Shown here: positions 1,333 through 43,422 of the stretch, in pieces | Layout of the letters: each line of letters opens with the position of its first letter | How positions within the stretch are numbered: the stretch's first letter is position 1 | Assembly: GCA_023255625.1 (NCBI GenBank) | Contig: JAHFLF010000001.1 | Span: 94,255-158,254 of the forward strand | Direction: 5' to 3' | Length of the DNA stretch: 64,000 bases | Source of the DNA: Candidatus Harrisonbacteria bacterium | Lineage (GTDB): Bacteria > Patescibacteriota > Minisyncoccia > UBA6257 > 1-14-0-10-44-23 | Position numbers and translations under genes: made by a program | The notes under the pieces: generated by a model | Databases searched by the model: none | What the model was told of the DNA's origin: nothing | What the model saw: the letters and a program-made list of their open reading frames with translations, nothing else

Positions 1333-1468
1333 ATAGATATATCTCAAGAGAAACGGATAGCGGCAAGCTGCTAGGCGGCCCTCTCGCAGGCCGAGGAGGC
1401 CGAGAGGAGTCGCTGCGCGAGCCGCGCGCAGATAGACGGGGCCGGTCTGCAGTTTACCGCTGTCCGTT

Positions 1469-2791: not shown

Positions 2792-2851
2792 ATCTTCATC
2801 TTAAACGATGATGCTCAAAGCGCCAAATGCGTCGCGCCCGGACGCTTCTGG

Positions 2852-6381: not shown

Positions 6382-6427
6382 GCCGATTATTTCTAAATTT
6401 TTGAGCTTTGCGATAAAAATTTTGCTA

Positions 6428-6689
6428 AAGAATCGAGCACCCCGCCCCTACACACCAAGCCTCTTTCGCAGATTGCGCCAACCGCCGCCATACTGCTTCA
6501 AGGTCAGTTCTCGCTCACGCGCTAAATCTTGGGTCGCGTAAGCTTCGTAATACAACAGCTTCCATCCCTTATGCTGGTTACGCCCATGCTCAACGAGGCG
6601 GCGGCGCAAATCTGCTGTATAACCGATGTAGAAATTTTTTGGTGGTGAAGTGAGAATATATAGGTAAAACATATTGGTGTAGGGGCGGG
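6428..6689. repeat. 15-17-bp inverted repeats bracketing the GIY-YIG gene
   Basis: ccccgcccctacacacc at ~6428-6445 and ggtgtaggggcgggg at ~6675-6689 are reverse complements. The 74-aa GIY-YIG ORF lies exactly between them. Confidence 0.6.
6448..6672 (-). CDS. GIY-YIG nuclease family protein (UPF0213/YhbQ-like, 74 aa)
   Basis: FYLYILTSPPKNFYIGYTADLRRRLVEHGRNQHKG...YGGGWRNLRKRL matches the GIY...YIG...R..H core. Confidence 0.7.
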   Translation of the reverse strand: MFYLYILTSPPKNFYIGYTADLRRRLVEHGRNQHKGWKLLYYEAYATQDLARERELTLKQYGGGWRNLRKRLGV

Positions 6690-6863
6690 GTAACTAGTTT
6701 GTGGTTGCTCGGATACTCGCAAACAAACTAAGTTATCCCCTGATTTCGTACTTATCCCCACCTTTCTCCACAGTTCCCCACTCACACTCCGAGTATGCCA
6801 CACTCTCCCACAGCGTCAAACCTAAACTGTGGATAGCTTGTGTACAAAAAATCCCCGCCGAAC

Positions 6864-6903
6864 AGGAAATGTCCGGTGGGGAATTTTTATGACTTATTTA
6901 ACT
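6864..6903. terminator. Bidirectional intrinsic terminator (A-run, GC hairpin, T-run)
   Basis: aaaaaatccccgccgaacaggaaatgtccggtggggaattttt: stem tccccgccg / cggtgggga flanked by A6 and T5. Immediately 3' of the 6913..7161 (-) gene. Confidence 0.55.
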
Positions 6904-6912
6904 AAACTATCT

Positions 6913-7161
6913 TTATTTAAAAAGTTTGTGATACCAGCGAACAAATATTGTCTTTATAAAATTTTCTGCTCCCTTCGAAGCATTCTCATTTTTGACCTCC
7001 TTGCGCATTTGCGTATAATCATTTGGCAAAGCATTGACCTCGTGCCGTGCAAAATCAAAAATCTTTTTTATGCCAGCGATCGTAAATACAAAAACGCCGA
7101 TCCAATACAAAATCCATGCACCGATAATGCCGGCCAGAATCCATAGAATGGTTGAAAGCAT
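6913..7161 (-). CDS. small membrane protein, hypothetical (82 aa)
   Basis: N-terminal hydrophobic helix-rich ORF followed by the terminator. Confidence 0.4.
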   Translation of the reverse strand: MLSTILWILAGIIGAWILYWIGVFVFTIAGIKKIFDFARHEVNALPNDYTQMRKEVKNENASKGAENFIKTIFVRWYHKLFK

Positions 7162-7263
7162 TGAGTAATATTAATACGCCCGTTTCGTTATAGCAATCAA
7201 GGAAAGCTCTTTAACATAACTTCAATCCTGCGCTCGCGCTGGGATTCTTTCAACCCTGAAGAT

Positions 7264-7330
7264 GTGCGCTCCGATTTTTAAGACCATCCCGAAGGGTGAG
7301 CCCGGTCTTAAAAATCGGAGCGCACATCAA
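7264..7330. repeat. 24-bp perfect palindrome with 18-nt loop
   Basis: gatgtgcgctccgatttttaagacc-atcccgaagggtgagccc-ggtcttaaaaatcggagcgcacatc, followed by A6. The track ORF 7262..7609 that covers it is probably not real. Confidence 0.6.
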
Positions 7331-7453
7331 AAAATCAATCCCTGCTCTGGCGCAGGAGGGAGTCGTCAACAATTAGTTGACGGATTGCGATGCCCGGAAG
7401 AATTTCGGGCAAGGTCACGCGATCTCAAAAACACTCTGCCCTGCTCATTGCAT

Positions 7454-7609
7454 ATGAGCAAAGCAATTGGTTTGATGATCGTGATCATCACCTTCGCCAT
7501 CTTTCTGCCGAATGTCTTTCATTCGGTTGAAACTCTGCTCCTGAAGTCGCTCGAGCTTGCCAACGCATCGCTCGACAACCTCGCTTCTATTGGACACCTT
7601 GTTCAGTAG
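7454..7609 (+). CDS. small membrane protein, hypothetical (51 aa)
   Basis: ATG at 7454: MSKAIGLMIVIITFAIFLPNVFHSVE..., one TM helix, ends 2 nt before a canonical terminator. Below the ORF-track size cutoff. Confidence 0.3.
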   Translation: MSKAIGLMIVIITFAIFLPNVFHSVETLLLKSLELANASLDNLASIGHLVQ

Positions 7610-7610
7610 A

Positions 7611-7645
7611 GCTTGAGCACACAACCACCCTTCCGGTGGTTGTGC
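7611..7645 (+). terminator. Rho-independent terminator
   Basis: gagcacacaaccaccc ttcc ggtggttgtgctc gttttt: 13-bp GC-rich stem plus T-run. Confidence 0.65.
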
Positions 7646-7651
7646 TCGTTT

Positions 7652-8194
7652 TTACGAATTCTCAATCCAAAATCGCATTTTGCGCGGCGTACCCTCGCCG
7701 ACGTCAAGAACATTTTCAAGTTTACCACCGCAGGATTCAATAATTTTGCGTGACGGCTCATTTGTTTCGTCGCAGGTAAGCAGCACCCGCGTAATTCCAA
7801 GAGAACGAGCAATCGGAAGCGCCTGCTCTAAAAGTAATTTTCCATATCCTCTCCTGCGTGCCCATGGCACAACATCATAGCCAATGTGCCCGCCCGTGCT
7901 CGCTAATTTTTCACTCAGCACGTGGCGGATGCTTACCCGACCCGCATACTTACCGTCAACAATCAGCCAGCGAGTGGTTGCCGGAACATGCTCACCATCT
8001 TTCGTGCGCCACCCATTATCAAATCGGTCGTGAAGGTGTGTAGCAAAATCCCGCTCCACCTCTTCAAGGTTGACTTCTAGATACCGCCCTTCTTGCTGAA
8101 GCTCCCGAATACCAGCAATATAACTTTCCTTATACTGCTGCGATGGCGGAACCAGCTGAACTCCTTTTTCAAAATTTTCTAATGTTCCTGACAT
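7652..8194 (-). CDS. GNAT family N-acetyltransferase
   Basis: RRRGYGKLLLEQALPIARSLG acetyl-CoA binding motif A. Start placed at MSGTLENF (M22 of the track ORF); the longer N-extension is less likely. Confidence 0.65.
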   Translation of the reverse strand: MSGTLENFEKGVQLVPPSQQYKESYIAGIRELQQEGRYLEVNLEEVERDFATHLHDRFDNGWRTKDGEHVPATTRWLIVDGKYAGRVSIRHVLSEKLASTGGHIGYDVVPWARRRGYGKLLLEQALPIARSLGITRVLLTCDETNEPSRKIIESCGGKLENVLDVGEGTPRKMRFWIENS

Positions 8195-9730: not shown

Positions 9731-10099
9731 TTATTTCAATTCCACCGTCGCTCCAGCAGCTTCGAGAGACTTCTTAAGAGTCTCGGCATCTGCCTTAGCC
9801 AGGCCAGTCTTAACTGACTTTGGAGCAGCATCAACAATGTCCTTGGCTTCTTTCAAGCCCAAGCCAGTTGCCTCACGGATAACCTTGATGACCTGAATCT
9901 TCTGCTCACCACCCTTGGTAATAACCACATCCCACGCAGTCTTCTCTTCTGCTTCGGCTGGACCAGCACCTGCGGCTGCCGGGCCGGCTGCCATTGCTGC
10001 TGAAACACCAAACTTCTCCTCCATTTTCTTCACGAGCTCTGCGAGCTCGGCAACGGTCAATTTCTCAACCGCGCTCATTATTGCGTCAAAATCTGCCAT
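9731..10099 (-). CDS. rplL: 50S ribosomal protein L7/L12
   Basis: Ala/Gly-rich hinge then ...[39 protein letters not shown]... C-terminal domain. Confidence 0.92.
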
Positions 10100-10979: not shown

Positions 10980-11700
10980 TTTCGTAAAGGTCAACTCGCC
11001 ATCTCCGCAAACTAGGGGCAGGAAAGCGAAGCGGGTCCGGTCAGCAAGTAGCCGACCGGACCAGAACTTCAAGAGAGTTTTAAAATCAGGTATCTCTTGA
11101 TTACCCTTGCCGGAGGTTACCGGCGATGACTGCTCCTCTGTTTGGAGTAGCAGTGCCGAGGAGACCGACGGTAGTAAGGCGTCGTCGGTCTTGTGAGCCG
11201 CGGCAGTGGATGCCGCCGCCTCATCAGAACGACCGCCTAGCCACTGCCGGCCGATGACACTGCTGCGCCATCGGCTTCTTGGTTGTCGCCTTGGGCCGAG
11301 CGACTGCAGGGCTCTGCGCAGCGGCCTTCAGTGCAGCAGCCCGCCGCTGAACCACGATCCGCCTCCTTGCCGCCAGGAAGTGATCGGCGCGACTCACGCG
11401 GACACCGAGGGCAGGACATCCACCCTCCCGATCCTGATCTGGGATGAGTCAGTCCTCATCTTCTCCGGGATGACGCCATCCGGATAGAACTGCTGGACCC
11501 GGTCCTCCATCGCCACCTCCACCGGCGGCGACTCCCGCGGATCCGCCGCTTCCAGAGCGAATCCTGCCGCGAGCGTCAGCTCGGTACGCACCCTCACGGC
11601 AGCCACACTGTCTCTCCCTCTCTTCATCGCGCATCCTCGCTTTCTTTGTATGCGCGGTTGTCCCTGCTCGCCTGCCTCCCGAAAGGCAGATCTAATCCCA
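10980..11700. other. ~700-bp high-GC (~60-65 %), hairpin-dense island with no single clean long ORF
   Basis: Composition shift relative to flanks. Several consecutive perfect hairpins, e.g. gggtccggtc..gaccggacc and gaccgacg..cgtcggtc. Overlapping short ORFs on both strands. Confidence 0.5.
11394..11627 (-). CDS. possible small high-GC ORF (77 aa) inside the GC island
   Basis: AGGA 6 nt before ATG. Codons strongly GC3-biased (GTG, GCC, CTG, GAG), unlike host genes. No motif. Confidence 0.2.
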   Translation of the reverse strand: MKRGRDSVAAVRVRTELTLAAGFALEAADPRESPPVEVAMEDRVQQFYPDGVIPEKMRTDSSQIRIGRVDVLPSVSA

Positions 11701-11858
11701 ACGAGCTTGGACGGATGCTCCGTTCTTCTAATAATTTCAAAAAAACGAAACATCCGTCCAATTAAGGACTTCAATGTGATTCAAAGAACTAAATCAGTTA
11801 TACATCTATTACTAGTTACTGTCAAATAACAGTAATATCAAATAGACGCATAACCTTT

Positions 11859-13578: not shown

Positions 13579-14019
13579 CTAAAATTTCAGCTCATCCGCC
13601 ACCGGCCCATCAAACTTCGGCGTGCTGGGCGTGTACGGAGTGTCGTTTGGGACATACGGTGGCTCGTCTCTTGCCGGCGCGCTAGCCGCCGGTGCGGCGT
13701 ACGATGTAGTCTGCGGCTGGCGAGGCAATACTGGCCGAGCACTTGGCTCTGGGCGAACAAAGGTTGACCCCTCTGGCTCATCAATCTTTAAATTCACGCG
13801 GGCCTGATGCTTGATGCCAACAATGCGCAGCAAACTGCGAATCGCCTTTGCGGTTGCGCCCTGACGACCAACAACCTGACCCATGTCTTCTTTGTGCACC
13901 TTGAGCCGTAAGAGTACGCCCAGGTCATCAACACTCCGCTCAACCACAACTTGCTCCGGGTGATCAACAAGCGACTTTACTAAATACTCCAAAAACTCCT
14001 GATCTAAAAATTTCTCCAT
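13579..14019 (-). CDS. KH-domain RNA-binding protein (KhpA/YlqC-like) with Pro-rich C-terminal extension
   Basis: EFLEYLVKSLVDHPEQVVVE...LLRLKVHKEDMGQVVGRQGATAKAIRSLL is the KH GxxG motif. Canonical position after rpsP. Start placed at MEKFLDQ. Confidence 0.7.
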   Translation of the reverse strand: MEKFLDQEFLEYLVKSLVDHPEQVVVERSVDDLGVLLRLKVHKEDMGQVVGRQGATAKAIRSLLRIVGIKHQARVNLKIDEPEGSTFVRPEPSARPVLPRQPQTTSYAAPAASAPARDEPPYVPNDTPYTPSTPKFDGPVADELKF

Positions 14020-14109
14020 GTGAGTAATCGCCAATATCGCGAATCTAGGCAAAATAACGCGAATGAATGCATTACAGACTAACTCGGATATTCAGCAAAT
14101 CTTTCGTAA

Positions 14110-14190
14110 CGACCTTTTCTGTATAATGAAACTATTCTAGCAAAAATAAAAAAATCTGCAAACTCCATGCACTGATAAAATTATCCTTAG
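14110..14190. other. 17-bp-stem hairpin gcgcatagtttcggcca...tgaccgaaactatgcgc in the rpsP-khpA intergenic region
   Basis: Coordinates are approximate; the hairpin was read at ~14241-14304 (reverse complements with one mismatch, ~30-nt loop), adjacent to palindrome copy 2. Confidence 0.4.
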
Positions 14191-14195
14191 GCCAT

Positions 14196-14232
14196 GTTAC
14201 AGCGTACTAGTACGCTGTAACATGGCAACTAG
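14196..14232. repeat. 30-bp perfect palindrome TGTTACAGCGTAC-TAG-TACGCTGTAACA, copy 2 of 2
   Basis: Identical to 1303-1332. ~80 nt 3' of the rpsP stop. Confidence 0.7.
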
Positions 14233-14306
14233 CAGCGCATAGTTTCGGCCATAGGGAGCACTAAATCTTCTGTGCTCATCTTGACCGAAACTATGCGCTG
14301 TAAATC

Positions 14307-14591
14307 TTATTTCTTTTCTTTAACTTTTTTGATTTCGTGATTCGCTCGGGTCTTCTGCTCAATCATCTTCTCCCGGACCAACAGGTTGTGGACGGTATCT
14401 GACGCCTGCGCGCCAACACCGAGCCAATACTTTACGCGCTCGGCATTAAAATGTGCTTTTTTCTCGCGCGGATTGTACCAGCCAAGATCCTCGGTTGAGT
14501 CTCCTTTTAACTTTGAGCGGCGCTCACCAACAACCAAACGAAACGCTGGCTGATGCTTTTTACCAATTCTTTTTAGTCTGATAGACAACAT
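14307..14591 (-). CDS. rpsP: 30S ribosomal protein S16
   Basis: MLSIRLKRIGKKHQPAFRLVV...GWYNP S16 signature. Confidence 0.9.
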   Translation of the reverse strand: MLSIRLKRIGKKHQPAFRLVVGERRSKLKGDSTEDLGWYNPREKKAHFNAERVKYWLGVGAQASDTVHNLLVREKMIEQKTRANHEIKKVKEKK

Positions 14592-14631
14592 AATAGACAA
14601 GATAATAGCTCATTCATGTCACACTTGTCAA

Positions 14632-15751
14632 TTACCACTTCTCATCATCCGCGTCGTTAAGCTCCAGGGGGACATTGCCCGGAAAATCAATTGCACTCGC
14701 GGCCCTCACAACATTGGATTCAACCCTGGCTATGCTACACCGCTTACTACTTTCTACGCGGCTATTATACCGCTTAACATTGCCGGTCGAATTATGCGCA
14801 GAGCCAATAACATAGAAGGTTTTATTTTCTCTGTGCGCATCCATCCACGCGTTCGTGGAGGCAACGGCTGCGTCTTCGCGGATTCGGGAAAGTTCGACAA
14901 GACGCTTTTGATGTTTTTCTTTGGCTTCGGCTGGAGCGCTTTCCTTAGGCGTATTCCGTATTACCTCCAACATTTCCATAGCTGCTGCGCGGTTATCACC
15001 GGTTTCCAGATTGAACTTACCCTCTCCATCAATCCGAGCCTTCCACGGCCCTCCCAAAGTTATATAAAGATTGTCCCCTTTAATAAGACGCTGCTCTGCG
15101 AGTTCGGCCAATTTTAATTCAAATCCCGGCCTATCTTCTGTAGTTGCGAAAGGCAAAAACTTTCTAAGACGAACTCTTAGGAAGTAGCCAAGAGTTGCCT
15201 TTTGGAATTCATCTAGATCAGGTCTATTCGAATTTTTATCATAGTCTTCGATCAGTGTGGCCAGAAGCTTTTGAACCGCCGCCGTATCGCCATTTCGCAT
15301 CGCAGTATTGAATAGGCCGTCGCATTGATTCAGATATTTATACAAAAAAGCAGCTTCTGTGTCAGCGGCAAGGTCAAGCCCCTCCAAAAAGAATGTATGA
15401 ATCCCATATTCCTCTCCTACATAGTTAATTAATGCTTCAATGTCTTTTTGATTTTGGATAATAAAGGGTGCGGCTCCGCTCTTCTCGTCTCTTGCGAGTT
15501 CGCCGGAACTATGGAGCTGTACCACTTCAAATATGGTACGCGGTCCGCGGATATCTTTTTTCTCCTTAAGTTCGAATCGAGATCTAATATCTCCAAGTTC
15601 AAAATGAAACGATTTTTTTGGTTCAGATTCGCGTCGAGCTATAGGGGGGGGGTTCTGGGCGTTCCGGCTCTTTACTGCAATCGAGAGCGCCAAGGGCAAG
15701 AGCCGCGGGTAAAATGAACTTCTTGAAATTGCTTTGTTCTGGTGAATCCAT
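14632..15751 (-). CDS. hypothetical secreted/lipoprotein-like protein, interrupted by a +1/-1 frameshift at a poly-C9 (forward poly-G9) tract
   Basis: ATG at 15751 encodes signal-peptide-like MDSPEQSNFKKFILPAALALGALDCSKEPERPEPPP, which hits a stop in that frame. The 355-aa body continues in the +1 frame from the G9 run at 15644-15652. Deleting one G would fuse them. Confidence 0.5.
15644..15652. repeat. homopolymeric G9 tract at the frameshift point
   Basis: ataggggggggttctgggc. Confidence 0.8.
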
Positions 15752-17972: not shown

Positions 17973-17980
17973 GAATCAGT

Positions 17981-18068
17981 TAGTTTGTTAGTTAGTCCAT
18001 AGTTAGTTAGCAAAAATCGGATACATCTATTGTACTAAGTAACTAACCAACTAACAACCAACTAACCA
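17981..18068. repeat. TTAGTTAG-type inverted-repeat hairpin between smc and Cys-rich gene A
   Basis: cagttagtttgttagttagtcc...ctaaccaactaacaaccaactaaccaa. Confidence 0.55.
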
Positions 18069-18072
18069 AATC

Positions 18073-19803
18073 TCATGCCACCTCTTGCTGGTAACAGGGC
18101 TCACAGTAAACGATCTCGGGCTGTGTTGGCGCGTATGAAGTTTGAATAGGATCCTTGCACTTCTGGCACTCACGATCATAGACCTGGAGCTTGGTGCGCT
18201 GGCTAATGCGGGCAAAGTGGCGGCAGTTTGAGCAAAGCCTCGGGAGCGGCAGATTCATGCTGCGATAAAATGCGAGTTCATCAGGAAGTACGCGGAATGC
18301 AAGCGTACATTGGTCATTGCACGATCCGGCATGCTCGCAGCCAATAATATCTGCAGTAATAGCATCCGGAACGTCCTTAATATTATCCGGTAACTCACTC
18401 GCCGGCTTAGTCACTGTATAGTTGCGCTGTGCCGCATCGCGCCACGTAAAACCACTCGCTTGTGCCTGCTCTTTGGTAAGCGGAAAGTTCTCTTGTGCCA
18501 GCGTCTCGTTGTAGGCAAACGGCGAAAGCTCTGCCGGAAAATACTCGCCATATTTGTAAATCCTCCCCTGTGCATCTAGATATGGCATTGCATCCATCTG
18601 CGCCTTAATCTTTGCAACCAGCGCAACATACTCCTCTTTTGAATACTGCTTGTTTAAAATGCAGTACTCTTTTTTGCGGAGTCCAACGCAGCCAAATAAA
18701 TTTGATGAGGCCTGACACATATACGAATACTCAATGTCATGCACCTGCTCCTGCACGTTGTAGCAAAACTTGATGTTGTTGGTGCCGAGACCGCACGCAG
18801 TGCATTCATAAATCTGCTGGTTACCTGCTCCCCACGCAGTGTAGTCATAACAATCTTTGCTGGCGGGCGTCTCCTGTACATACTGACAGTAACGCAAATT
18901 CTCGCCTTCACGCACTAAAAATGAGTTGCGCACATTGCGAGAGTGGGAAATGTAATTGCCAGAAACATCGGTATTCTGCAGGCCATTAATATACTTATTG
19001 GGGAACTTCAGCCAGAACGCCCTCGCCTGCTCCCGCATAGCCTGCACGGCCGCATACGAACCAAGATTATATTCAGTAATCTTTTTCTCATACTCCTCCT
19101 TCGTATACTGCTCATTCCATATGCAGTAAGACTTTTTACGCAACCCGACGCAACCAAAACAGTTGCTTACGCCGACACAGTCTTTGGAAAATGCAATGTC
19201 GTACGAGCTCTCACATTGCGAAGAAAAAATCGCGTTGCGACACGAAGAAAGCCAAAATCCTTCATAGCATCGCTCAGACTTTTGAAGATGCGAATTATCA
19301 ACGCAATTCTTCACGCCGCCCAGCCCGTTGCCATACATGCAGTCCTCTGCGCCCTGGCCGTTGAAAGTTAAATAACAATTTTTTGGATCAGTAAAATTAT
19401 TCACATAATCACTATTCACGCCATTTACCACATTCAGATTTTTAAGCGGTACGCTGTGGAGCAATTCTTTGAACTGCTCAAAAAATGACTTTGCTTCATC
19501 AAAGTCGCGGCCATAGGTCATCGGGTCCCACAAATCAGAAAGCCAGACATCTTTTTCGTATACCTTCACGGACGAGTCGGGTGCAAAGGCAGAAAAAATA
19601 TCCTTGCCCGAATAATCACTCTTCCGTTTAAATAAAAATCGTTCATTACGAAACGCCATTCTGCGCTGTGCCCGACACAACCAACAAAACGTTGGCGGCG
19701 GCACCGAAACTTTTTTGTAAAATTCCAAATCAGCAGAATCAATAATGAAATCCTGTTTGCAGTTCTGGCAATTTCTAGTTTCCGAGGTTGTCATAGCTAC
19801 CAA
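18073..19803 (-). CDS. Cysteine-rich zinc-ribbon protein, paralog A (576 aa, unknown family)
   Basis: Many cysteines. N-terminal C-x2-C...C-x2-C (CQNCKQ...FCWLCR). Internal duplication FGCVGLRKKSYCIWNEQYTKEEYEKK / FGCVGLRKKEYCILNKQYSKEEYVAL. C-terminal CSNCRH...CQKCKD...YCEPCYQQEVA. Clearly homologous to 22898..24637. Confidence 0.65.
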   Translation of the reverse strand: MVAMTTSETRNCQNCKQDFIIDSADLEFYKKVSVPPPTFCWLCRAQRRMAFRNERFLFKRKSDYSGKDIFSAFAPDSSVKVYEKDVWLSDLWDPMTYGRDFDEAKSFFEQFKELLHSVPLKNLNVVNGVNSDYVNNFTDPKNCYLTFNGQGAEDCMYGNGLGGVKNCVDNSHLQKSERCYEGFWLSSCRNAIFSSQCESSYDIAFSKDCVGVSNCFGCVGLRKKSYCIWNEQYTKEEYEKKITEYNLGSYAAVQAMREQARAFWLKFPNKYINGLQNTDVSGNYISHSRNVRNSFLVREGENLRYCQYVQETPASKDCYDYTAWGAGNQQIYECTACGLGTNNIKFCYNVQEQVHDIEYSYMCQASSNLFGCVGLRKKEYCILNKQYSKEEYVALVAKIKAQMDAMPYLDAQGRIYKYGEYFPAELSPFAYNETLAQENFPLTKEQAQASGFTWRDAAQRNYTVTKPASELPDNIKDVPDAITADIIGCEHAGSCNDQCTLAFRVLPDELAFYRSMNLPLPRLCSNCRHFARISQRTKLQVYDRECQKCKDPIQTSYAPTQPEIVYCEPCYQQEVA

Positions 19804-19822
19804 CCTAATGATACCACCTAAC

Positions 19823-20989
19823 TTAACCTAAAAATTTCTCACTGTGTTTTACCAAATCAGTGTAATAGTTCATATATGAATCAGCCAAGGCTTGATCTTT
19901 TATTTCTATAACCGTCGGGATAGGATCAAAAATCTGCAAAAGTACGGTGCCATCGCTATTGATGTTAATATCAGCCATATTTTGCATGCTCCGCGAAAGT
20001 ATAGATAAATTATTTAAATGCGGACATTCTTTCGCGAGCCGCCTGTCTTCTTCACCATATTCATACATCAACATATCCCACGCAATATTCTTTTTGACAC
20101 GCAGTGCATCGTATTCTTTGTACGCGTTTCCCATCGGCCCGTACCATGTGTTTCCTAATCCCCCGATGATTGTAATCCGACTATTTTCAGGTAACCGATT
20201 GAGCAATGCTAAATGATATGCCTGAAACTCTTCCTTGCCGGAATATATTTTTACATTAGACGCGCCCAAGGAGGCGTTGGCAATGAAATTACTGATTCGT
20301 TTATTTTTTGACTCCAAAAGAAATTCATACGACTTTCCTTTTTTAATAATTTCCCCGTTTTCCATAAAGCAAACCGTATCGGCATTGGAAATGGCAAAAT
20401 TAATGTCATGTGCAACCATGAGAATACCGACGCCTCTTTTTTTAATCGCAACTAAGTGCGACAAAATAATTTCTGACTGCTCAACATCAAGCGAAGAGGT
20501 AATCTCGTCTAATAATAAATACTGCGGTTTGAGGGCAAGCGCGCGTACGAGCGCCACCCGTTGCCGCTGTCCGACCGAAGCCTCATTCGGAAAACGGTCA
20601 AGAAAACCTTTCATCTCAAACATTTCATAGAGCTCCTCAAGATACTCTGTGTTATCTTTTAAAGCGCCCCGCACTTCAAGTGGTAATTCAATATTTTTCC
20701 GAAGCGTCAGGTGCGGCCAAATAAACAATTGCTGAAAAACAACGGAAACCCGCGGCCACGGCGGGACAATGTCTTGAGGGGCCAGAGGGAAAGAGTATCC
20801 AGTAGAATCTATTGTCATTGTCCCTGTTTCGGGCAAATCCAACAAAGAGATTGCCTTGAGCAGTGTCGTCTTGCCGCTTCCGCTTGGGCCGATTATAGAA
20901 GTAATCGTTCCTGGTTTAACCTCTAAGCTAACGTTACGCAAAACAACATGGTCACCGAATTTTTTTGTTATGTTAGTTACTCGCAACAT
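19823..20989 (-). CDS. ABC transporter ATP-binding protein (amino-acid type) with ~140-aa C-terminal extension
   Basis: Walker A GPSGSGKTT, signature LSGGQRQRVALVRAL, Walker B LLLDEITSSLD. Start at MLRVTNITKKF (ATG ~20989), overlapping the permease stop. The extra C-terminal domain is unassigned. Confidence 0.85.
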   Translation of the reverse strand: MLRVTNITKKFGDHVVLRNVSLEVKPGTITSIIGPSGSGKTTLLKAISLLDLPETGTMTIDSTGYSFPLAPQDIVPPWPRVSVVFQQLFIWPHLTLRKNIELPLEVRGALKDNTEYLEELYEMFEMKGFLDRFPNEASVGQRQRVALVRALALKPQYLLLDEITSSLDVEQSEIILSHLVAIKKRGVGILMVAHDINFAISNADTVCFMENGEIIKKGKSYEFLLESKNKRISNFIANASLGASNVKIYSGKEEFQAYHLALLNRLPENSRITIIGGLGNTWYGPMGNAYKEYDALRVKKNIAWDMLMYEYGEEDRRLAKECPHLNNLSILSRSMQNMADININSDGTVLLQIFDPIPTVIEIKDQALADSYMNYYTDLVKHSEKFLG

Positions 20990-20990
20990 A

Positions 20991-21671
20991 TTATTTTTCG
21001 GACAAGTTTCTCGTGTATTTATTTTTGAACCAATATGCGAGTAGATTAAGCGGTAAGCAGATTGCGATGAAGAACACGGCAAGTGCTGTATAGATTTCTA
21101 TGGGCTTGTACACTACCGAGTTAATCTGTTGCGCCACACGAAAAAGCTCTGAGACAGAAATCAGACTGGCGAATAAAGTCAGTTGAAGCATGCTGACTTG
21201 CAGGGTAAGAAATTGCGGAATAGTCTGGCGAAAAATAATCGGCAGCTCTATTTTTGAAAAAATTTCTCTCGCTGTAAGTCCGCACACCTTCCCCGCGATC
21301 ACATACTGATCTGGAAAATCATCCAGCGCATCTCTAACTATTTGAGCAACGCCCACAATATTAATTAAGGAAAGTGCAAATGCTGCGGTTATGAATGGAA
21401 TAATCACGACCCCAAGAAGCGCTTGGAGTGGATAATGCAGCCAGAACAAAAGCACTAAAACTGGCGTACTCGCCAAAAGAAAAGAAAGAATTTTAAGAAA
21501 CCAACCGGTACTTTCTTTTTGCCGATGCGCAAACGCTCCAAAGAGTACGCCGAAAACCAAGCCCGAAAACCAAATAATCAGGCACAATCCAAGAGTTACA
21601 AGAAGGCCTGATAGCAGGCCTTCTTTGTAGGTGTAAATTATATTCCACACTGACATACGGTTACTTGGCAA
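20991..21671 (-). CDS. ABC transporter permease (polar amino-acid family)
   Basis: Multi-TM. EAA-like loop ...ALDDFPDQYVIAGKVCGLTAREIFSKIELP. Confidence 0.8.
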   Translation of the reverse strand: MPSNRMSVWNIIYTYKEGLLSGLLVTLGLCLIIWFSGLVFGVLFGAFAHRQKESTGWFLKILSFLLASTPVLVLLFWLHYPLQALLGVVIIPFITAAFALSLINIVGVAQIVRDALDDFPDQYVIAGKVCGLTAREIFSKIELPIIFRQTIPQFLTLQVSMLQLTLFASLISVSELFRVAQQINSVVYKPIEIYTALAVFFIAICLPLNLLAYWFKNKYTRNLSEK

Positions 21672-22539
21672 CTACATATGGCGGCGCAGCCCGGTAGAAA
21701 CCGCCCGGGTAGTCTTTTTCAAATCCGTTGATTACGCCGTCAACATAGCCGTTATTCAATAATTCAATAAGAGCATTATCAATGGTTGACTTGAATGTAA
21801 ACTCTCCCTTTTTGATCATCATGACATTGCCGTAGATGACGACCGGCTTAACAACGGAAACATTTTTTACTTTCCCGGGGTTATTTTTTATGTACGCATT
21901 GGCAACTGTCGGCTCTAAAAATGCCATATCAACTTTGCCATCAACAACATTGAGAAGCATTTGAGAAACGTCTGTCAGCTGCGGCAATTGGAGAGTCTTA
22001 GCATTTGGGAATTGGCGAGAAGCGATCAGTTGTGATGTTTCTCCGTCAATAGTCGCTAATTTATAATTTGCGTTATTCGCAACCGTTACATCACTGTTAA
22101 ATCTATTATCACTGGCGCGGACATATGCGTTAATAGCGCTATAGTAAACGGGCTCCGAAAACTCCGCACTTTTACCGCGTGTTGAATTACTCCACGACGG
22201 AGAACCGATAATGTCGCATTTGCTGGAATTAAGGGCTTCAATCATATCTCCCCAACCAACTTCGGTATTCCAATCAACTTTCAGGCCCATATTTTCTGCC
22301 GCCTTGTCCAACGTTTGCACGAACACACCTGATAATTTCCCGGTATTGGGGTCTTTAATAGAGGCCGGCGGGTAGACGACATAGCAAGCCCGTATAGTGC
22401 CGGAACTAATTACTCTGTCGTACACGGAACTCCCTGCTAAACTTACCGGCGAAGAACCGGACAATTTTATCGTAATTAAACTCACTACGACAGTCAGAAT
22501 CACAACGCCAAGGATTTTGAACCAATTTCCATTTTTCAT
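21661..22539 (-). CDS. ABC transporter substrate-binding protein (family 3 / PBPb, polar amino-acid type)
   Basis: N-terminal TM anchor/signal, then periplasmic-binding-protein type 2 fold motifs. Operon with permease and ATPase. Confidence 0.75.
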   Translation of the reverse strand: MKNGNWFKILGVVILTVVVSLITIKLSGSSPVSLAGSSVYDRVISSGTIRACYVVYPPASIKDPNTGKLSGVFVQTLDKAAENMGLKVDWNTEVGWGDMIEALNSSKCDIIGSPSWSNSTRGKSAEFSEPVYYSAINAYVRASDNRFNSDVTVANNANYKLATIDGETSQLIASRQFPNAKTLQLPQLTDVSQMLLNVVDGKVDMAFLEPTVANAYIKNNPGKVKNVSVVKPVVIYGNVMMIKKGEFTFKSTIDNALIELLNNGYVDGVINGFEKDYPGGFYRAAPPYVVAK

Positions 22540-22605
22540 AATTAATAAAGATATTTGATAATAATGATACCACGCTCATAGCGGCTCACTTTTGCCCGAC
22601 GAAAA

Positions 22606-22755
22606 CAAAAGAGCGCCCAACTTAGAGCCTTTCTCGGCTCGTGGTCGCTCAAATTCAGATCCGAAGGTGCGATCTCGCTTTCGTCCGCACGCTCAGATCA
22701 AAATTCAATACTACGCATTCAAGATAGCATGAATTCAAAATCCTGTCAATCCCCC
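22606..22755 (-). promoter_or_regulatory. Conserved ~110-nt 5' leader element, copy a (upstream of the ABC operon)
   Basis: Shares the core ...cagatcc.aag.gcgat.t.cg...c.cgctcagatc.aaa.tcaat.c... with 24700-24810 and 25375-25505. Minus-strand RNA ends in a U-rich tail right before the SBP start. Confidence 0.55.
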
Positions 22756-22800
22756 GCTGTTATACTAATTCCACGGCCGTTGAATTAGTATAACAGCGAC
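22756..22800. repeat. 17-bp perfect inverted repeat hairpin
   Basis: cgctgttatactaattc cacggccgt tgaattagtataacagcg, then ctttattttt. Confidence 0.55.
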
Positions 22801-22823
22801 TTTATTTTTACTAACTAACCGAC

Positions 22824-22897
22824 TCACGCCACCTCTTGCTGATAGCACCCCAGTACTAGAACCTGCTGGTTCAGTACGGGGCATGCTCAATACACAA
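22824..22897 (-). other. Insertion with a conserved 34-nt hairpin (22848-22881) plus a displaced original gene end (synonymous duplicate of the last 8 codons of gene B)
   Basis: Minus read: current end TGT TAT CAA CAA GAG GTA GCA TAA, then spacer + hairpin CCCCGTACTGAACCAGCAGGTTCTAGTACTGGGG, then TGC TAT CAG CAA GAG GTG GCG TGA (same CYQQEVA*, every difference at a third position), then the ggttagtt repeat as found after gene A. Confidence 0.6.
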
Positions 22898-24637
22898 TTA
22901 TGCTACCTCTTGTTGATAACATTCTATGCAATATACTTTTTCGGGCCGGTCGGGGGCGTACGAAGTTTCAAATTGATTTTGGCATTGGGTTTCACCGTGC
23001 TGGTGCGTGGCCGCTCCCGGGCACTGACACGAACGCGGCCAGAGTGTAAGAGGATTGCGTTTCGCAATGCGCTCATAATGGCGGCAGTTTGGGCAGAGCC
23101 GCGGCAATGGCAATGATGCAAGTTTATAGAGAGTCAGGTCTTCCGGCAAAATTCTGAATGCGGTCGTACACTGATGCATGCATCCGTTATGAGCACAACT
23201 TATAATTGCCTTGGTCACCTCATCGCCAGCATCTGCGGCAGAATCCGGCAACTCATCTGGCTGCATCGTAATTTTATAGTTACGCTGCGGTTCATCTCGC
23301 CAGCCATAGCCGGCCACAATAGCATCTTCTTTTGAGAGAGGGAAGAAATCGTGCCCCATTGTTTCGTTGTACACAAATGGCGACAAATCACTTGGAAAAA
23401 ATTCGCCGTACTTGTAGACAAGCCCGCGCTTATCAATATATGGCGTCGTGTCCATTTGCATTTTTATCTTTCCGACCATCGTCTCATACTCCTCTTTGGT
23501 GTATTGCTTGTTCAAAATACAGTACTGACTTTTTTTCATACCAACGCAACCAAACAAATCTTTAGATCCGTGGCAGTTCATGACATATTCGCAATCAATG
23601 ACTTGCTCCCAGCACTCATTGGCAAATTTTAAATTGGCTATTTGTCTACCACAGTTTTGAACTTCATACATACGCTCGGCCGTCGCTCCCCAATGGTTAA
23701 AATCCATTGAATCTTTTGCATCAAAAAGCGAAAGCCCGTACCGAACATTCTGAACATTACGACAGGTGAAAGAACGGGAGACATCCTGACAATGGTCAAT
23801 CCAGTTGCCGCTCACTCGCATCCCTTGGCGCACAACAAGAGCCGGGACAATGAACTGTCTTTTAAATTCATCAAATTTTTTGCGAAGCAGCTCAACGGAA
23901 CGAGCCGAATGTATATTGAGTTCAGCAATTTTTTTCTCATACTCCTCTTTAGTGTACTGTTCGTTCCATATACAGTACTGTTTATTTTTCAAATTTACGC
24001 AGCCGAAAGAATTTTGAACATTCATACAGTTCAGCAAAAACCACGAGTCCGAGCAGTTATTTGATTCTTGCGAAAAGGCAACGCTGTAGCACTGCGAACA
24101 ATCAATGCACTCATAACACCGCTCTGATTTTTGTGTGCCAAAACAATCTAAACACTCTTTTGAGGACATAATCCAGGTACTATACCGAGAGTTTTCCGCG
24201 CCGGTCGTTGCAAACACAAGATAACAATTTTTCATATCTGTTACCCGATTTGTATACTCACTATTGATACTCTGACCCTGCTTGATAATGCCCGGGCGAG
24301 GCACGGCAAGCAGCAATTCTTTGAACTGCTCGAAAAATGGCCGGGTAAAATCGTAATCGCGCGCATATGTTTTTGCATCCCACGACTCTGACCACCAGCA
24401 CGGATAGCAAAAAACAGAATGAGGGCTGTCTGGGCTGTACATCAAAATCTTTTCCTGCTTGCAAAGTCCGCATGGACGCTTAAATAGTGTTCGCTCACTA
24501 CGCCAAATAAATCGCCGGAGCAGCCGGCACTGCGGACAAAATGTCGGCTCGGGTACTTTAAGCATGGTTAAAAACTCCGTGTCCTCCGCGGTAATTTCAA
24601 ACTGCTGCTTGCACTGCTGACAATTTTTTGCTGCCAT
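22898..24637 (-). CDS. Cysteine-rich zinc-ribbon protein, paralog B (579 aa)
   Basis: Same architecture as 18073..19803 (~45 % identity by eye). Internal duplicate FGCVNLKNKQYCIWNEQYTKEEYEKK / FGCVGMKKSQYCILNKQYTKEEYETM. Extra N-terminal CGLCKQ...CYPC ribbon. C-terminal ...YCIECYQQEVA. Confidence 0.65.
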   Translation of the reverse strand: MAAKNCQQCKQQFEITAEDTEFLTMLKVPEPTFCPQCRLLRRFIWRSERTLFKRPCGLCKQEKILMYSPDSPHSVFCYPCWWSESWDAKTYARDYDFTRPFFEQFKELLLAVPRPGIIKQGQSINSEYTNRVTDMKNCYLVFATTGAENSRYSTWIMSSKECLDCFGTQKSERCYECIDCSQCYSVAFSQESNNCSDSWFLLNCMNVQNSFGCVNLKNKQYCIWNEQYTKEEYEKKIAELNIHSARSVELLRKKFDEFKRQFIVPALVVRQGMRVSGNWIDHCQDVSRSFTCRNVQNVRYGLSLFDAKDSMDFNHWGATAERMYEVQNCGRQIANLKFANECWEQVIDCEYVMNCHGSKDLFGCVGMKKSQYCILNKQYTKEEYETMVGKIKMQMDTTPYIDKRGLVYKYGEFFPSDLSPFVYNETMGHDFFPLSKEDAIVAGYGWRDEPQRNYKITMQPDELPDSAADAGDEVTKAIISCAHNGCMHQCTTAFRILPEDLTLYKLASLPLPRLCPNCRHYERIAKRNPLTLWPRSCQCPGAATHQHGETQCQNQFETSYAPDRPEKVYCIECYQQEVA

Positions 24638-24699
24638 AAAAAATAACTACTATTATATTAATTAATAGTAGCATTGGCAGCTGCGCGAGGACTGGTCGC

Positions 24700-24810
24700 A
24701 CAACAAAAAGCGGCAAAATATATTGCTCGCTTCAATCCAGATCTAAACGCGCGATTTTCGACTATCCTCACGCTCAGATCCAAACTCAATGCTCTATGAT
24801 TACTTTAGCA
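24700..24810 (-). promoter_or_regulatory. Conserved 5' leader element, copy b (upstream of Cys-rich paralog B)
   Basis: Minus-strand RNA has stems GAUCUGAGCG / CGUUUAGAUC (compensatory pairs relative to the other copies). A terminator-like AAGCGAGCAA..UUGCCGCUU + UUUGUUGU sits ~60 nt before the ATG. Confidence 0.55.
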
Positions 24811-24875
24811 CTGATTGAGCGCCTTGTAAATGTTCGCGGGCCGGCACACCTTGCGGTGGCCGGCCCGGAATTGCT

Positions 24876-25349
24876 TCATGGGTCTCTCCTTGTTGCTTGA
24901 GCTACGAGCGGCGCCAAGACCCTCGTCAAGCTCTTGGCGGCTGCGCCACTGCAGTCGATAGGGGCAACCAAACTACTAAGCGCATCAAGCCACTCCGGGT
25001 CTTGAGGGGTAGTAACCAACATGAATAGCTGGCAAAGCACCTTCCCTCTCGAGCCATCGCTCGGTCGCCCATACTCTAACGCCTCAACGGTATCCTGCAA
25101 GGAACCCCAGAACATGTGAATGCAGGAGTTGCTAGCAGGCCACTCGTGGGCACAACCGTCATGGCTCTCAGCGATTGTCCTCTGAGTCTTGCCATCGTTG
25201 AACTCAAGGCGGGCCCGGCCGTTGCCGTCTTTCAAAAATCCGACAACGAAGTACGGGAAACCGTCACCCATGGGCCCGGTTCGGATCTTCCGCGTCGCCA
25301 CAACCTCCCATCCGTCGAACGCCCGAATGCTCTTATCGATCTTGCTCAT
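24876..25349 (-). CDS. hypothetical protein, high-GC (157 aa from MSKIDKS)
   Basis: GC-rich island 24840-25350. Preceded by leader copy c. Confidence 0.4.
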   Translation of the reverse strand: MSKIDKSIRAFDGWEVVATRKIRTGPMGDGFPYFVVGFLKDGNGRARLEFNDGKTQRTIAESHDGCAHEWPASNSCIHMFWGSLQDTVEALEYGRPSDGSRGKVLCQLFMLVTTPQDPEWLDALSSLVAPIDCSGAAAKSLTRVLAPLVAQATRRDP

Positions 25350-25374
25350 TGTCCACCTCTTTAGTTTTGGAGAA

Positions 25375-25505
25375 AAAACAAAAAGAGCCCTCAACGCGAG
25401 TGCTCAAATACAGATCCTAAAGCGCGATTTTCGACTATCCTCGCCGTAAGACCTACATTCAATGACAAAATAAGATTAGCATATCATAGCCAATCTGTCA
25501 ATCTC
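25375..25505 (-). promoter_or_regulatory. Conserved 5' leader element, copy c
   Basis: 22 nt (agcgcgattttcgactatcctc) identical to copy b. Minus RNA ends GAGCACUC GCGUU GAGGGCUC UUUUUGUUUUUU, a terminator-like hairpin plus U-run just upstream of the ORF. Confidence 0.55.
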
Positions 25506-25634
25506 TATTTACCTATTCGTACGAATGAGGGCATAGAAAAATCCCTCACCGCCTGGTGGCGGTACTCCCTTTAGACGCGGACAACAAATCCCTCACCGCT
25601 ACTGCGGTCCCCTCCCTTTAGGAAAGGGAGAATA

Positions 25635-27110: not shown

Positions 27111-27150
27111 ACTAGTTAATCGGTTAGTCAGTTAGTTGGTTAGTTAGTTT
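27111..27150. repeat. TTAGTTAG-type repeat cluster
   Basis: ctagttaatcggttagtcagttagttggttagttagttt. Confidence 0.5.
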
Positions 27151-27293
27151 AAAACTCGGAAGCAATGCAAAAAAGGATACCAGGAAGATAAAAAAGATGC
27201 AAATTTGGAAATTTATTTTGTCGGGGCGGCGCGCTTCGCGCACCGCCCCGACGACTGCCCGCCTTGGGCGGGCTTACCCCCTGGAGAGCGGAG

Positions 27294-27778
27294 CTACTTC
27301 GGCCGGCTCGGCTCCTCCAGGATGATCGGGAGCCGAACCGCTTCTTCGGACAGAGCCCCGTCCGAGGAATACTCGTACCACTTCGGTCCGCCGCTCCTGA
27401 TACGAATGCCGACGATGCCGCCGTCAGCCGCGATCTCCAGCGGAAACCTGCCGAAGCCCTCATCCTCGTAGACGACCGTCCTGTCTCCGCTTGGCAGCCA
27501 GAGACCCTTCTTCCAGCAGATGACCCATTCGTGGGTCCCGGGCACGGACCAGACATAGAAGGTCGTCGCGGCCTTGTTCGTCTTGGCCATCCGCCGGACC
27601 TCCGAGAGGAAGGTGCAGTGTCCAACGAACTCCGCCGGTAGCTCCTGGACGATCCGCCAGTCCGTCTTCTCCTGTGCCTGCAGCTCGTCGCGCCACTTGC
27701 CCGGCCACACGAAACCGAAGAAGGCCACGACCACTGCAACTCCGAGAATCCTTCCGAACAACGAACTAATGGACATCT
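27294..27778 (-). CDS. hypothetical membrane-anchored protein, high-GC (161 aa)
   Basis: AGGAGG 7 nt before ATG (MSISSLFGRILGVAVVVAFFGF...). Single N-terminal TM. Strongly GC3-biased codons. The overlapping Arg/Ser-rich 228-aa track ORF reads as the wrong frame. Confidence 0.5.
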
Positions 27779-27882
27779 TGAGACCTCCTGCCCCGCGAAA
27801 CCCGCCATGGGCTCGCTTTGGGACAAACTCACCATGCAACTTTTTTAACTTTTTTGCAACCGAGTAGGAAAATACCTTGAAG

Positions 27883-27950
27883 CAGCCAACCGACTCATTC
27901 TCGCGAGAATGTGAGTCCAATTTCTCGCGAAATGAGTCGGTTGGCTGCTA
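27883..27950. promoter_or_regulatory. 68-nt composite perfect palindrome in the divergent region between 27778(-) and dnaE(+)
   Basis: gcagccaaccgactcatt ctcgcgagaa tgtgagtccaat ttctcgcga aatgagtcggttggctgc: 18-bp outer and 9-bp inner inverted repeats. Confidence 0.55.
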
Positions 27951-43294: not shown

Positions 43295-43422
43295 CGCTAC
43301 CTCCCAGCCCGTAGAACGGGCCGTCGTTAGAAACCAACGGCCCAAACCGGGCCAGCCACGCCGTACGCCAGCGTTGGCCCTATTCGACTGTCCCATGCAG
43401 GCCCCACACGAGGCCAACATTG

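Follow-up and report, generated by a model that had tools for sequence, protein, structure and literature searches.

All genes between positions 18073 and 25505 of the 64,000-nucleotide stretch of DNA analysed here (the window) lie on the minus strand, and two of them, genes A and B, bracket an ABC importer. In the direction of transcription the region begins with leader copy 3 (25373–25501), placed in front of an orphan GC-rich ORF (24876–25349; 157 aa from ATG 25349, ribosome-binding site AGAGGTGG), and continues with leader copy 2 (24638–24830), which precedes gene B (22898–24637; 579 aa with 37 cysteines and four Cys4 sites predicted to bind zinc). Behind gene B there are a ~50-nt remnant of a family-gene 3′-end (22809–22857, minus strand), a near-perfect palindrome (22755–22799) centred on ACGGCCGT and leader copy 1 (22602–22749), which stands in front of the importer operon. 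The operon encodes a membrane-anchored family-3 solute-binding protein, SBP (21661–22539; Pfam SBP_bac_3, E 8e-17), a permease (20991–21671; BPD_transp_1, E 3e-14) and an ATPase (ABC_tran, E 2.6e-29). For the latter the mechanical ORF spans 19823–21082, and the likely start is ATG 20989, which gives a protein of 388 aa (19823–20989) in agreement with the length of its homologs. Gene A (18073–19803) comes last and encodes 576 aa from TTG 19803, with an alternative ATG at 19794.

The original prediction of a complete polar-amino-acid-type importer between A and B was thus confirmed, as family-3 SBP, BPD_transp_1 permease and ABC_tran ATPase are combined in one operon. The remnant contains the end ..CYQQEVA, a stop codon and a GGTTAGTT flank, has similarity to the 3′-end of gene A and represents a rearrangement scar, while the palindrome is probably a terminator of gene B or of a lost gene. 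The orphan ORF is indeed GC-rich, as had been noted before (57% GC and 66% GC3 versus 48% GC for the window), and a database search with it returned itself as the sole match. GC content of the ABC genes (42–44%) is lower than that of their neighbours (45–49%).

A very large uncharacterised family restricted to Patescibacteria

Over their full length genes A and B align as paralogs with 47% identity (530 bits), and they represent two types, hereafter A-type and B-type, of a very large uncharacterised family of ~580-aa zinc-ribbon/beta-solenoid proteins found exclusively in Patescibacteria. At least 7,992 matches were obtained, all of them annotated as hypothetical and all from this group; among clusters at 50% identity, 4,932 matched with E ≤ 1e-3 and 2,076 with E ≤ 1e-30, and of the 150 clusters listed most have a length of ~550–600 aa. 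No relative of the family was found in Pfam, NCBIfam, PHROG, PADLOC and PDB, in line with the initial impression that A and B fit no known family, and a literature search retrieved no paper describing it. Since PADLOC models and IMG/VR gave no match, and the single PHROG hit was weak (2.4e-6) and belonged to a group of unknown function, a role in anti-phage defence or a phage origin found no support. Novelty means here the lack of a described relative and is no proof of a new activity: zinc ribbons, beta-solenoids, terminator-containing leaders and ABC importers are all familiar.

Most structural features proposed earlier were reproduced. The beta-solenoid half is internally duplicated (residues 112–262 versus 262–400 of gene B, E 1.7e-21; E 1.3e-20 for gene A), the N- and C-terminal CxxC modules are homologous to one another (E 6e-15), and both paralogs share the C-terminus YC..CYQQEVA. 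The number of cysteines was overestimated: instead of roughly 45–50, gene A has 31 and gene B 37, with a mean of 38.5 and a range of 31–44 in the alignment of 36 sequences (A, B and 34 homologs). The overall architecture comprises a double Cys4 zinc-ribbon (treble-clef-like) module, two duplicated narrow beta-solenoids, an acidic linker and the second zinc-ribbon module. Four sets of cysteines (C6/C9/C34/C37, C56/C59/C77/C80, C481/C490/C515/C518 and C537/C552/C570/C573, gene B numbering) are kept at 97–100% in the 36 sequences and, by the pattern of two CxxC knuckles, are predicted to form Cys4 zinc sites; gene A has no second N-terminal knuckle (C56S, C59S, C77E, C80V). The AF2 model has pLDDT 77.8 and pTM 0.78, with the central solenoids at pLDDT 50–70.

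The solenoid carries a ladder of cysteines or small residues with a 12-residue period and Cys at 3/6/9 spacings. Ladder cysteines are exchanged with S/V/G/L between paralogs and several ladder columns are just 56–86% Cys. The CxxCxxCxxC segment of gene B (positions 174–183), viewed as a candidate ligand set of the Fe-S or metallothionein-like type, is altered in gene A, where G and L occupy two of its cysteine positions. Such replaceability suggests that the solenoid cysteines may not be indispensable as metal or redox ligands. Both proteins are soluble, with no signal peptide or transmembrane segment (maximum KD19 0.84–1.16), and their near-neutral pI (5.9 and 6.5) lends no support to nucleic-acid binding. 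Most likely, proteins of this family act as zinc-stabilised binding scaffolds with diversified paralogs.

Several known folds bear some likeness to A and B. Insect antifreeze beta-helices (spruce budworm CfAFP, 1m8n; Tenebrio TmAFP, 1ezg) are also narrow solenoids with an interior cysteine ladder, but the solenoid of A and B is duplicated, capped with zinc ribbons and lacks a signal peptide, its ladder tolerates S/V/G/L, identity is ~7%, and inspection of the sequences by eye revealed no Thr-x-Thr ice-binding face. Membership was therefore rejected and the resemblance attributed to the fold only. Left-handed beta-helix (hexapeptide) acyltransferases and gamma-carbonic anhydrases have longer coils; no Hexapep Pfam match was registered, nor any sign of the trimeric arrangement of their active site, and this assignment, which would call for a hexapeptide signature together with a significant fold match, was rejected as well. 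Among treble-clef and zinc-ribbon domains the nearest are zf_Tbcl (PF13451), zf_Tbcl_2 (PF23477) and PHD/E7-CR3-like fingers; with the two zf_Tbcl families the proteins share predicted Cys4 sites made of two CxxC knuckles. Scores were, however, below the Pfam gathering thresholds (gene A: 16.2 bits versus 24 for zf_Tbcl and 14.6 versus 27 for zf_Tbcl_2; gene B: only Zn_ribbon_8, 14.5 versus 34.4), so that membership in the two zf_Tbcl families was not supported, and the 100-aa module, which has a double knuckle and a conserved CRxxRR...RNER helix, differs from treble-clef domains in having no solved counterpart.

Patescibacteria (CPR) are ultra-small, episymbiotic bacteria and have tiny genomes. 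At other loci family genes form tandem arrays of 2–6 paralogs, often near VirD4/TraG-like ATPases, and the family takes up to ~10 kb in genomes of 0.6–1 Mb. Since many Patescibacteria spend 2–6 genes of 1.7 kb on it, its function is likely to matter for their lifestyle. Three or four predicted Cys4 sites together with duplicated Cys-laddered solenoids make the architecture amenable to direct tests.

The leader element and its possible modes of action

In this lineage the family genes are located between rnc and smc, and the same synteny was found in three related genomes. In one of them (L076) an A-type/B-type pair was seen at this place; another (L068) has two B-like copies and a frameshifted third, and the last (L077) a single B-type gene followed by the contig end. 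Variable genes occur between or after the paralogs. The gene A ortholog of L076 is 76.5% identical, B-type relatives are 57–60% identical, and rnc lies just upstream in 4/4 genomes.

The shared leader postulated in the original prediction proved to be real. It consists of a promoter, a hairpin P1 and a terminator P2, and each family gene in this lineage has its own unit: besides the three copies of the window, the sole ones within 64 kb (79–85 bits with the covariance model), leaders were found upstream of all six family genes of the three relatives, so that homologs are linked to the element in the near lineage. Altogether there are nine copies in four genomes. The leader also precedes the orphan ORF and a receiver-domain gene of L077. 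Copy 1 has the promoter TTGACA-17-TATCTT with TG (22721–22749), P1 at 22647–22712, the GC hairpin P2 at 22611–22650 and a U-run at 22602–22610. In copy 2 the promoter TTTACA-17-TAAAGT with TG (24802–24830) is followed by P1 (24729–24793), terminator P2 (24707–24733), a U-run to ~24700 and a start-proximal hairpin P3 (24648–24670; AAUGCUACUAU..UAGUAGU). Copy 3 combines TTGACA-17-TAATCT (25473–25501), P1 (25402–25466), P2 (25385–25405) and a U-run (25373–25384). Its 19-nt core GGATAGTCGAAAATCGCGC recurs unchanged in copy 2, as part of 21 nt at the hairpin apex in which the two copies do not differ.

P1 is a 24-bp, G·U-rich, 5′-terminal hairpin, and its G·U pairs point to a strand-specific RNA. 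The helix covaries (89.4% paired; in seven pairs both partners have changed), and none of 500 shuffles came up to the observed values. Nothing among the 4,227 Rfam families matched the leaders at E ≤ 10, gathering scores being reached in the window by tRNAs only. Two pattern scans of the whole collection gave matches at no more than the chance level. The leader is a covarying structured RNA element described in no database. TTGACA-like and TGnTAnnnT elements upstream and a GC hairpin with a U-run downstream are present in 9/9 copies, so the layout upstream of the ORF, with a promoter, then a conserved 5′ structure and finally an intrinsic terminator, corresponds, at the sequence level, to that of a generic terminator-type attenuator. 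It is shared with riboswitches, with protein-dependent antitermination such as that at BglG/SacY RAT sites and with the rnc autoregulatory hairpin, from which this leader differs by the lack of an Rfam match and of a detectable antiterminator alternative.

With moderate confidence we prefer a joint explanation, which includes the protein family with its putative scaffold function, attenuation at the leader, a captured importer cassette and a leader duplicate at the orphan ORF. Most transcripts would stop at P2, and read-through into the genes would be set by a trans-acting factor recognising the sequence-conserved helix of P1. Control may be exerted by attenuation or by processing, with a protein being a likelier effector than a small-molecule aptamer, and the orphan ORF would be driven by a recent duplicate of the gene B leader. 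Sequence is the basis here for placing the transcription starts and for postulating termination at P2 and read-through. Such a compact covarying RNA has an obvious read-out, termination versus read-through, and provides an entry point to gene regulation in Patescibacteria, about which, to our knowledge, almost nothing is known.

An unlikely alternative is that P1 serves RNA processing or stability, as a double-stranded hairpin cut by RNase III or as a protector of the mRNA 5′-end, with the level of expression being fixed. The near-continuous helix of ~24 bp is predicted to begin ~5 nt into the transcript, and its conserved sequence, wobble pairs and variable apical loop were judged to suit recognition by a dsRNA-binding protein better than a ligand pocket. 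The gene for RNase III, rnc, is also syntenic with the pair, but its nearness may merely be inherited, and a stabiliser would need no terminator right behind it.

We consider it very unlikely that the leader represents a riboswitch of a new class, with a metal ion or small molecule (Zn2+ or a thiol, for example) as the signal that switches the P2 terminator. A promoter, structured RNA and terminator in front of unrelated genes is a typical riboswitch arrangement, the hairpin covaries without an Rfam counterpart, and the main regulated proteins are predicted to need 3–4 zinc ions each. Yet the element is one long helix with few conserved unpaired bases and an apical loop varying in sequence and length (7–10 nt), and its phylogenetic range is very narrow. 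No convincing alternative pairing or pseudoknot was found in it; P1 and P2 co-fold in MFE structures, and complementarity of the P1 apex to the downstream sequence did not exceed that of shuffles.

Just as improbable is the assumption that the "leaders" are independent small-RNA genes of ~95–100 nt (promoter, P1 and P2) duplicated together with the paralogs. Each unit does have a full promoter and terminator, and the start-proximal TGCTACTAT resembles an extended −10 element (five family genes and SBP have a TGnTAnnnT-like motif 20–35 nt ahead of their ATG), so family genes may have a second promoter of their own. However, there is no room for it at the orphan ORF or the L077 receiver gene, and the orientation of the units and their spacing to the downstream gene are constant. 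Moreover, the TGCTACTAT hairpin contains a G·U pair and shows register-shifted compensation in L076b, which suggests that the motif is transcribed as RNA.

Quite unlikely, finally, is the boldest extension of these data, namely that these multi-zinc beta-solenoid proteins make up a new class, central to the biology of Patescibacteria and host-directed or RNA-binding, whose expression in this lineage is gated by an undescribed RNA switch answering to zinc/thiol status or to the very proteins it controls.

The importer cassette and its link to the family

From the ATPase stop it is 19 nt to the TTG start of gene A at 19803, which has AGGTGG 10 nt before it, and 28 nt to the alternative ATG at 19794; no promoter or leader was found in this gap. 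The position of gene A is therefore consistent with the predicted co-transcription with the importer. Elsewhere the cassette has another environment: at 3/3 loci (L078, L079 and a third contig) SBP, permease and ATPase genes are arranged divergently to TrmB, which is absent next to the importer of this genome. TrmB-linked cassettes elsewhere, the low GC content of the ABC genes, the lack of a leader before gene A and the remnant at 22809–22857 suggest an insertion. According to the joint explanation favoured above, a conserved three-gene cassette appears to have been placed by insertion downstream of the A-type leader and ahead of gene A, and would now be driven from this leader and co-transcribed with gene A; the scenario rests on three syntenic relatives and base composition. 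The linkage would then be a capture specific to this genome rather than a conserved partnership, and, appearing to be a one-genome insertion accident, it is attractive but misleading as a functional clue.

The functional partnership anticipated between the importer and the Cys-rich proteins found no support outside this genome. No family-3 importer was found near family genes at nine independent loci elsewhere (0/9), no family gene among the called genes of the three cassette loci (0/3), and no leader at the two cassette loci with available DNA. Specificity for cysteine or cystine received no particular support either. NCBIfam matches of the SBP are far below cut-off and split among Lys/Arg/Orn, cystine and ectoine binders (cystine SBP, 45 bits versus 312), and TcyN scores 159 bits versus a cut-off of 406, with Arg, Gln and Lys/Arg/Orn models scoring alike, so identity with the cystine importer TcyJLN was not supported. 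Highly improbable is therefore the small regulon in which the importer brings cysteine or cystine for metal- or redox-active Cys-rich proteins under one common leader: importer, genes A and B and the orphan ORF do share the leader here, gene A directly follows the ATPase, and the sub-threshold matches include TcyN and cystine-binding models, but these match no better than Arg, Gln, Lys/Arg/Orn and ectoine models, a receiver-domain gene and the orphan ORF are preceded by the leader as well, cysteines of the solenoid can be exchanged with S/V/G/L, and the two sets of genes do not meet at the other loci compared.

In its operon order the cassette (SBP_bac_3, BPD_transp_1, ABC_tran) is the same as the PAAT importers GlnHPQ, ArtPIQMJ and TcyJLN, and the ATPase matches the ArtP, TcyN and GlnQ models with E 1e-46 to 1e-47, far below equivalog cut-offs. 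It differs from them by the conserved C-terminal domain of ~140 aa, which had been noted as unassigned and indeed has no Pfam match. Homologs of this ATPase are full-length, with 382–410 aa and 53–83% identity, and occur across Patescibacteria.

Cysteine-rich protein family

All features of the locus occupy the minus strand, in the transcription order rnc (26339-25635), an orphan ORF (25349-24876), gene B (24637-22898), the SBP, permease and ATPase genes of an ABC importer (22539-21661, 21671-20991 and 20989-19823, respectively), gene A (19803-18073) and smc (17972-15753). The products of genes A and B align over their whole length with 47% identity, which confirms them as paralogs, and the anticipated internal duplication was registered as homology between the central halves of each protein (E 1e-20 to 1e-21). 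Their N-terminal and C-terminal cysteine modules are also mutually homologous (E 6e-15), and both proteins terminate, as originally noted, with YC..CYQQEVA. The number of cysteines, assumed to be roughly 45–50 in each, was overstated: there are 31 in the gene A protein and 37 in that of gene B, while across 36 aligned sequences the mean is 38.5, with 33 columns being at least 80% Cys. Both products are predicted to be soluble and near-neutral (pI 5.9 and 6.5), with no transmembrane or signal segment.

At least 7,992 relatives of gene B are present in the database, all of them in Patescibacteria (Liptonbacteria, Jorgensenbacteria, Parcubacteria, Paceibacterota and Staskawiczbacteria); essentially all are annotated as hypothetical and almost none has a Pfam domain. 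A profile search among 1.84 billion representatives gave 4,932 clusters at 50% identity with E≤1e-3 and 2,076 with E≤1e-30, and most of the 150 clusters listed have a length of ~550–600 aa and match end to end. Neither single-sequence nor profile searches found a match in NCBIfam, PADLOC or PDB sequences, in line with the impression that the paralogs fit no known family; in PHROG there was one weak match, to a family of unknown function, and literature searches found no description of this ~580-aa family. Phage or defence origin was rejected, as no relatives were found on viral contigs of IMG/VR and PADLOC gave no match.

The AlphaFold2 model built on the 36-sequence alignment (pLDDT 77.8, pTM 0.78) predicts a two-knuckle zinc module (residues 1-95), two solenoids (~115-228 and ~265-378, pLDDT 50-70), a well predicted acidic linker and a second two-knuckle module (477-579). 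Each solenoid would be closed by the conserved strand-helix FGCVGLRxKxYCIxNxQYxKEEY. The 16 ribbon cysteines are 97-100% conserved in the alignment, one knuckle pair being lost in A-type proteins. Cysteines of the solenoids follow a 12-residue period with 3/6/9 spacings and are exchanged for S, V, G or L between paralogs, so that an interior packing ladder fits better than obligatory metal ligands. The terminal modules resemble treble-clef zinc ribbons, with scores below Pfam thresholds, and the narrow Cys-laddered solenoids are similar to insect antifreezes in fold only. Most plausibly, the family proteins would be zinc-stabilised binding scaffolds, diversifying by tandem duplication.

In nine independent loci the family genes form tandem arrays of one to at least six diverged copies. 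Three of these loci, L068, L076 and L077, share synteny with the window, in the order NusB-RNase III ... family genes ... SMC. L068 contains two B-like copies and a third one, called as two genes of 327 and 274 aa (13778-15536), which seems to be a frameshifted copy or a pseudogene. In L076 the order is B-type, small cupin, A-type. Its A-type gene is an ortholog of gene A (76.5% identity) that has lost the same zinc knuckle, and orthologs of gene B have 57-60% identity; judging from these relationships, the A/B split is older than the separation of the window genome and L076. In L077 the B-type gene is followed by a leader and a receiver-domain-like gene (7400-8006, Response_reg E 2.5e-6) at the A-type position of L076; this contig ends before any A-type gene could appear. 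Several more distant arrays are adjoined by PGK and a VirD4/TraG-like ATPase (DUF8128 + DUF87 + TrwB_AAD_bind), these neighbours lying in L001 at 467-2023 and 13691-15109, in L069 at 1864-4233, in L075 at 6034-7500 and in L080 at 1354-3729. Such recurrence may reflect inherited synteny or a functional link.

Structured leader of the family genes

The three regions upstream of the SBP gene, gene B and the orphan ORF (copies 1, 2 and 3) can be aligned from a TTGACA-type -35 box through a T-run, as expected for one repeated leader. Its promoter (TTGACA/TTTACA-17-TAnnnT with TG before TAnnnT) is followed, ~5 nt downstream of the predicted transcription start, by a 65-nt hairpin P1, and directly 3' of it by P2, a GC-rich hairpin with a U-run, that is an intrinsic terminator. 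The covariance model of P1 found exactly three copies in 64 kb, with 79-85 bits against 14 bits for the next best hit. The leader fits the generic class of terminator leaders and matches no known family: Rfam 15 gave no hit at the gathering score or at E≤10. Both the protein family and the RNA motif are without described relatives, and together they would represent a sizeable and testable part of the dark matter of Patescibacteria, to which an unclassified regulatory RNA is attached.

Two copies were found in each syntenic locus: one before each of two paralogs in L068 (GCA_040384425.1) and L076 (GCA_023244975.1), and before the B-type and receiver-like genes in L077, where the latter is possibly another instance of a foreign gene that came to lie behind this leader. 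Across nine copies P1 is 89.4% paired, 7 of 24 pairs are changed on both sides, none of 500 shuffles reached any of the observed measures and all slid registers collapsed. Much of the helix is conserved in sequence, the apical loop differs between copies in both sequence and length, and P1 is rich in G·U pairs, one U·G being conserved in 8 of 9 copies, which means that the structure exists in RNA of this strand and not as a DNA palindrome. The model refined on nine copies detected no additional one, neither in the window nor in the more distant family loci. A pattern scan of GTDB genomes gave 64 matches, in non-Patescibacteria except one Saccharibacteria MAG; since ~69 were expected by chance, they were treated as such. 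Four matches in JGI metagenomes scored ≤13 bits with the covariance model, and both scans are uninformative beyond the rarity of the leader. The element is real but phylogenetically narrow.

The 19-nt core of copy 3 (GGATAGTCGAAAATCGCGC) is the same as in copy 2 and belongs to an apex stretch of 21 nt in which the two copies do not differ, and the 157-aa orphan ORF behind copy 3 (66% GC3) has no homolog among 5.8 billion proteins. These data point to copy 3 as a recent local duplication.

The sequence shows the gene order, the conserved structure of P1 and the modular build of promoter, P1 and terminator. We propose that transcription begins ~5 nt ahead of P1 and mostly terminates at P2, while a trans-acting factor recognising the P1 helix would set read-through or stability. 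We favour a protein over a metabolite, because P1 forms a single extended helix whose loop is variable, neither a pseudoknot nor an alternative pairing was found, and the helix is conserved together with its wobble pairs, a combination that we judge to be commoner where a protein recognises RNA than in a ligand pocket. The factor might be RNase III, which is syntenic, or else the zinc-ribbon proteins. The P1 apex and the P2 loop show promising complementarity in L068a and L076a (GGACAG/CUGUCC and GGACGA/UCGUCC), but pairing of the two in a kissing-loop or pseudoknot was rejected, as duplex energies in the nine leaders were no better than those of shuffles (z -1.6 to +1.6). A DNA operator is not suitable either, because up to ~1/3 of the pairs of a copy are G·U and would be mismatches in DNA. 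By inspection we also rejected an integron attC site (the hairpin ends, CATTGA at 5' and TTGAAGC/TTTGAGC at 3', mismatch the R-box consensus, and abundant G·U pairs indicate RNA-level structure) and a leader peptide with Cys codons (no Shine-Dalgarno sequence, no conserved frame).

Importer cassette next to gene A

A complete importer between genes A and B was verified by Pfam matches to a family-3 SBP, permease and ABC ATPase, and it is a true member of PAAT-type ABC importers. The last ~140 residues of the ATPase have indeed no Pfam match; they form a conserved domain (19823-20260, residues ~245-388), found also in the importer-cassette loci L078 and L079. A supposed likeness of it to TrmB-C was not confirmed (BLASTP E=1, no Pfam match). 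Full-length homologs of the 388-aa ATPase (382-410 aa, 53-83% identity) occur across Patescibacteria. In all three loci elsewhere the cassette is divergent to a TrmB-family regulator and family genes are absent from the called genes; the leader is absent in both loci with DNA. The window importer has no adjacent TrmB regulator, and GC-content of its genes is 42-44% versus 45-49% in neighbours. The leader that precedes the A-type gene in L076 stands before the SBP gene in the window, and gene A itself has none. The simplest reading is that the cassette was inserted between the A-type leader and gene A; importer and gene A would then constitute one leader-controlled operon, in this genome only.

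The gap between the ATPase stop and the start of gene A is 19 nt (TTG, with AGGTGG 10 nt upstream) or 28 nt (ATG), and neither its inspection nor the covariance-model search of the window revealed a promoter or leader there. The predicted co-transcription of the importer with gene A is consistent with this gap, but their linkage does not extend beyond this genome: a family-3 importer was near family genes in none of the nine independent loci surveyed. Thus, the original prediction was largely right as a description, while the link assumed between the importer and cysteine supply to the paralogs is not supported.

Downstream of gene B, ~50 nt after its stop codon, a ~50-nt stretch (22809-22857, minus strand) is left over from a family gene: it corresponds to the 3' terminus (..CYQQEVA stop and GGTTAGTT flank) and has a 4-nt deletion. 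This indicates either that a third paralog was lost or that recombination left a scar here. A template/variable repeat of a DGR was rejected, as the differences show no specificity for adenine and the ORFs inspected nearby included no reverse transcriptase.

Additional elements of the locus

Five family genes share a start-proximal hairpin P3 (AAUGCUACUAU..UAGUAGU), located at 24648-24670 in the window, ~9970-9995 and ~12000-12025 in L068, and ~2140-2165 and ~4300-4335 in L076. The genes behind it have no Shine-Dalgarno sequence. P3 also fits the local extended -10 consensus TGnTAnnnT and could be a second promoter.

Terminator-like units in two tandem copies (AAAGGGAG.ACCGC..GCGGTGAGGGATTT) lie 3' of rnc (25539-25620, minus strand), and a similar unit was observed between the paralogs of L068 (~11745-11800). 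Inverted repeats (TTAGT)n / (ACTAA)n cover all 100 nt from the gene A stop to the smc start (17973-18072). Three GC-rich islands (24876-25349, 27149-27920 and 42041-43420; 55-59% GC versus 48% overall in the window) contain the orphan ORF, two overlapping ORFs without Pfam match and a weak Band_7 ORF. Between family genes in two unrelated genomes (window 22755-22799; L001 7931-7976 and ~11540-11570) there are near-perfect palindromes with ACGGCCGT, an 8-mer occurring once in the window, at their centre; they may be a shared type of terminator or repeat.
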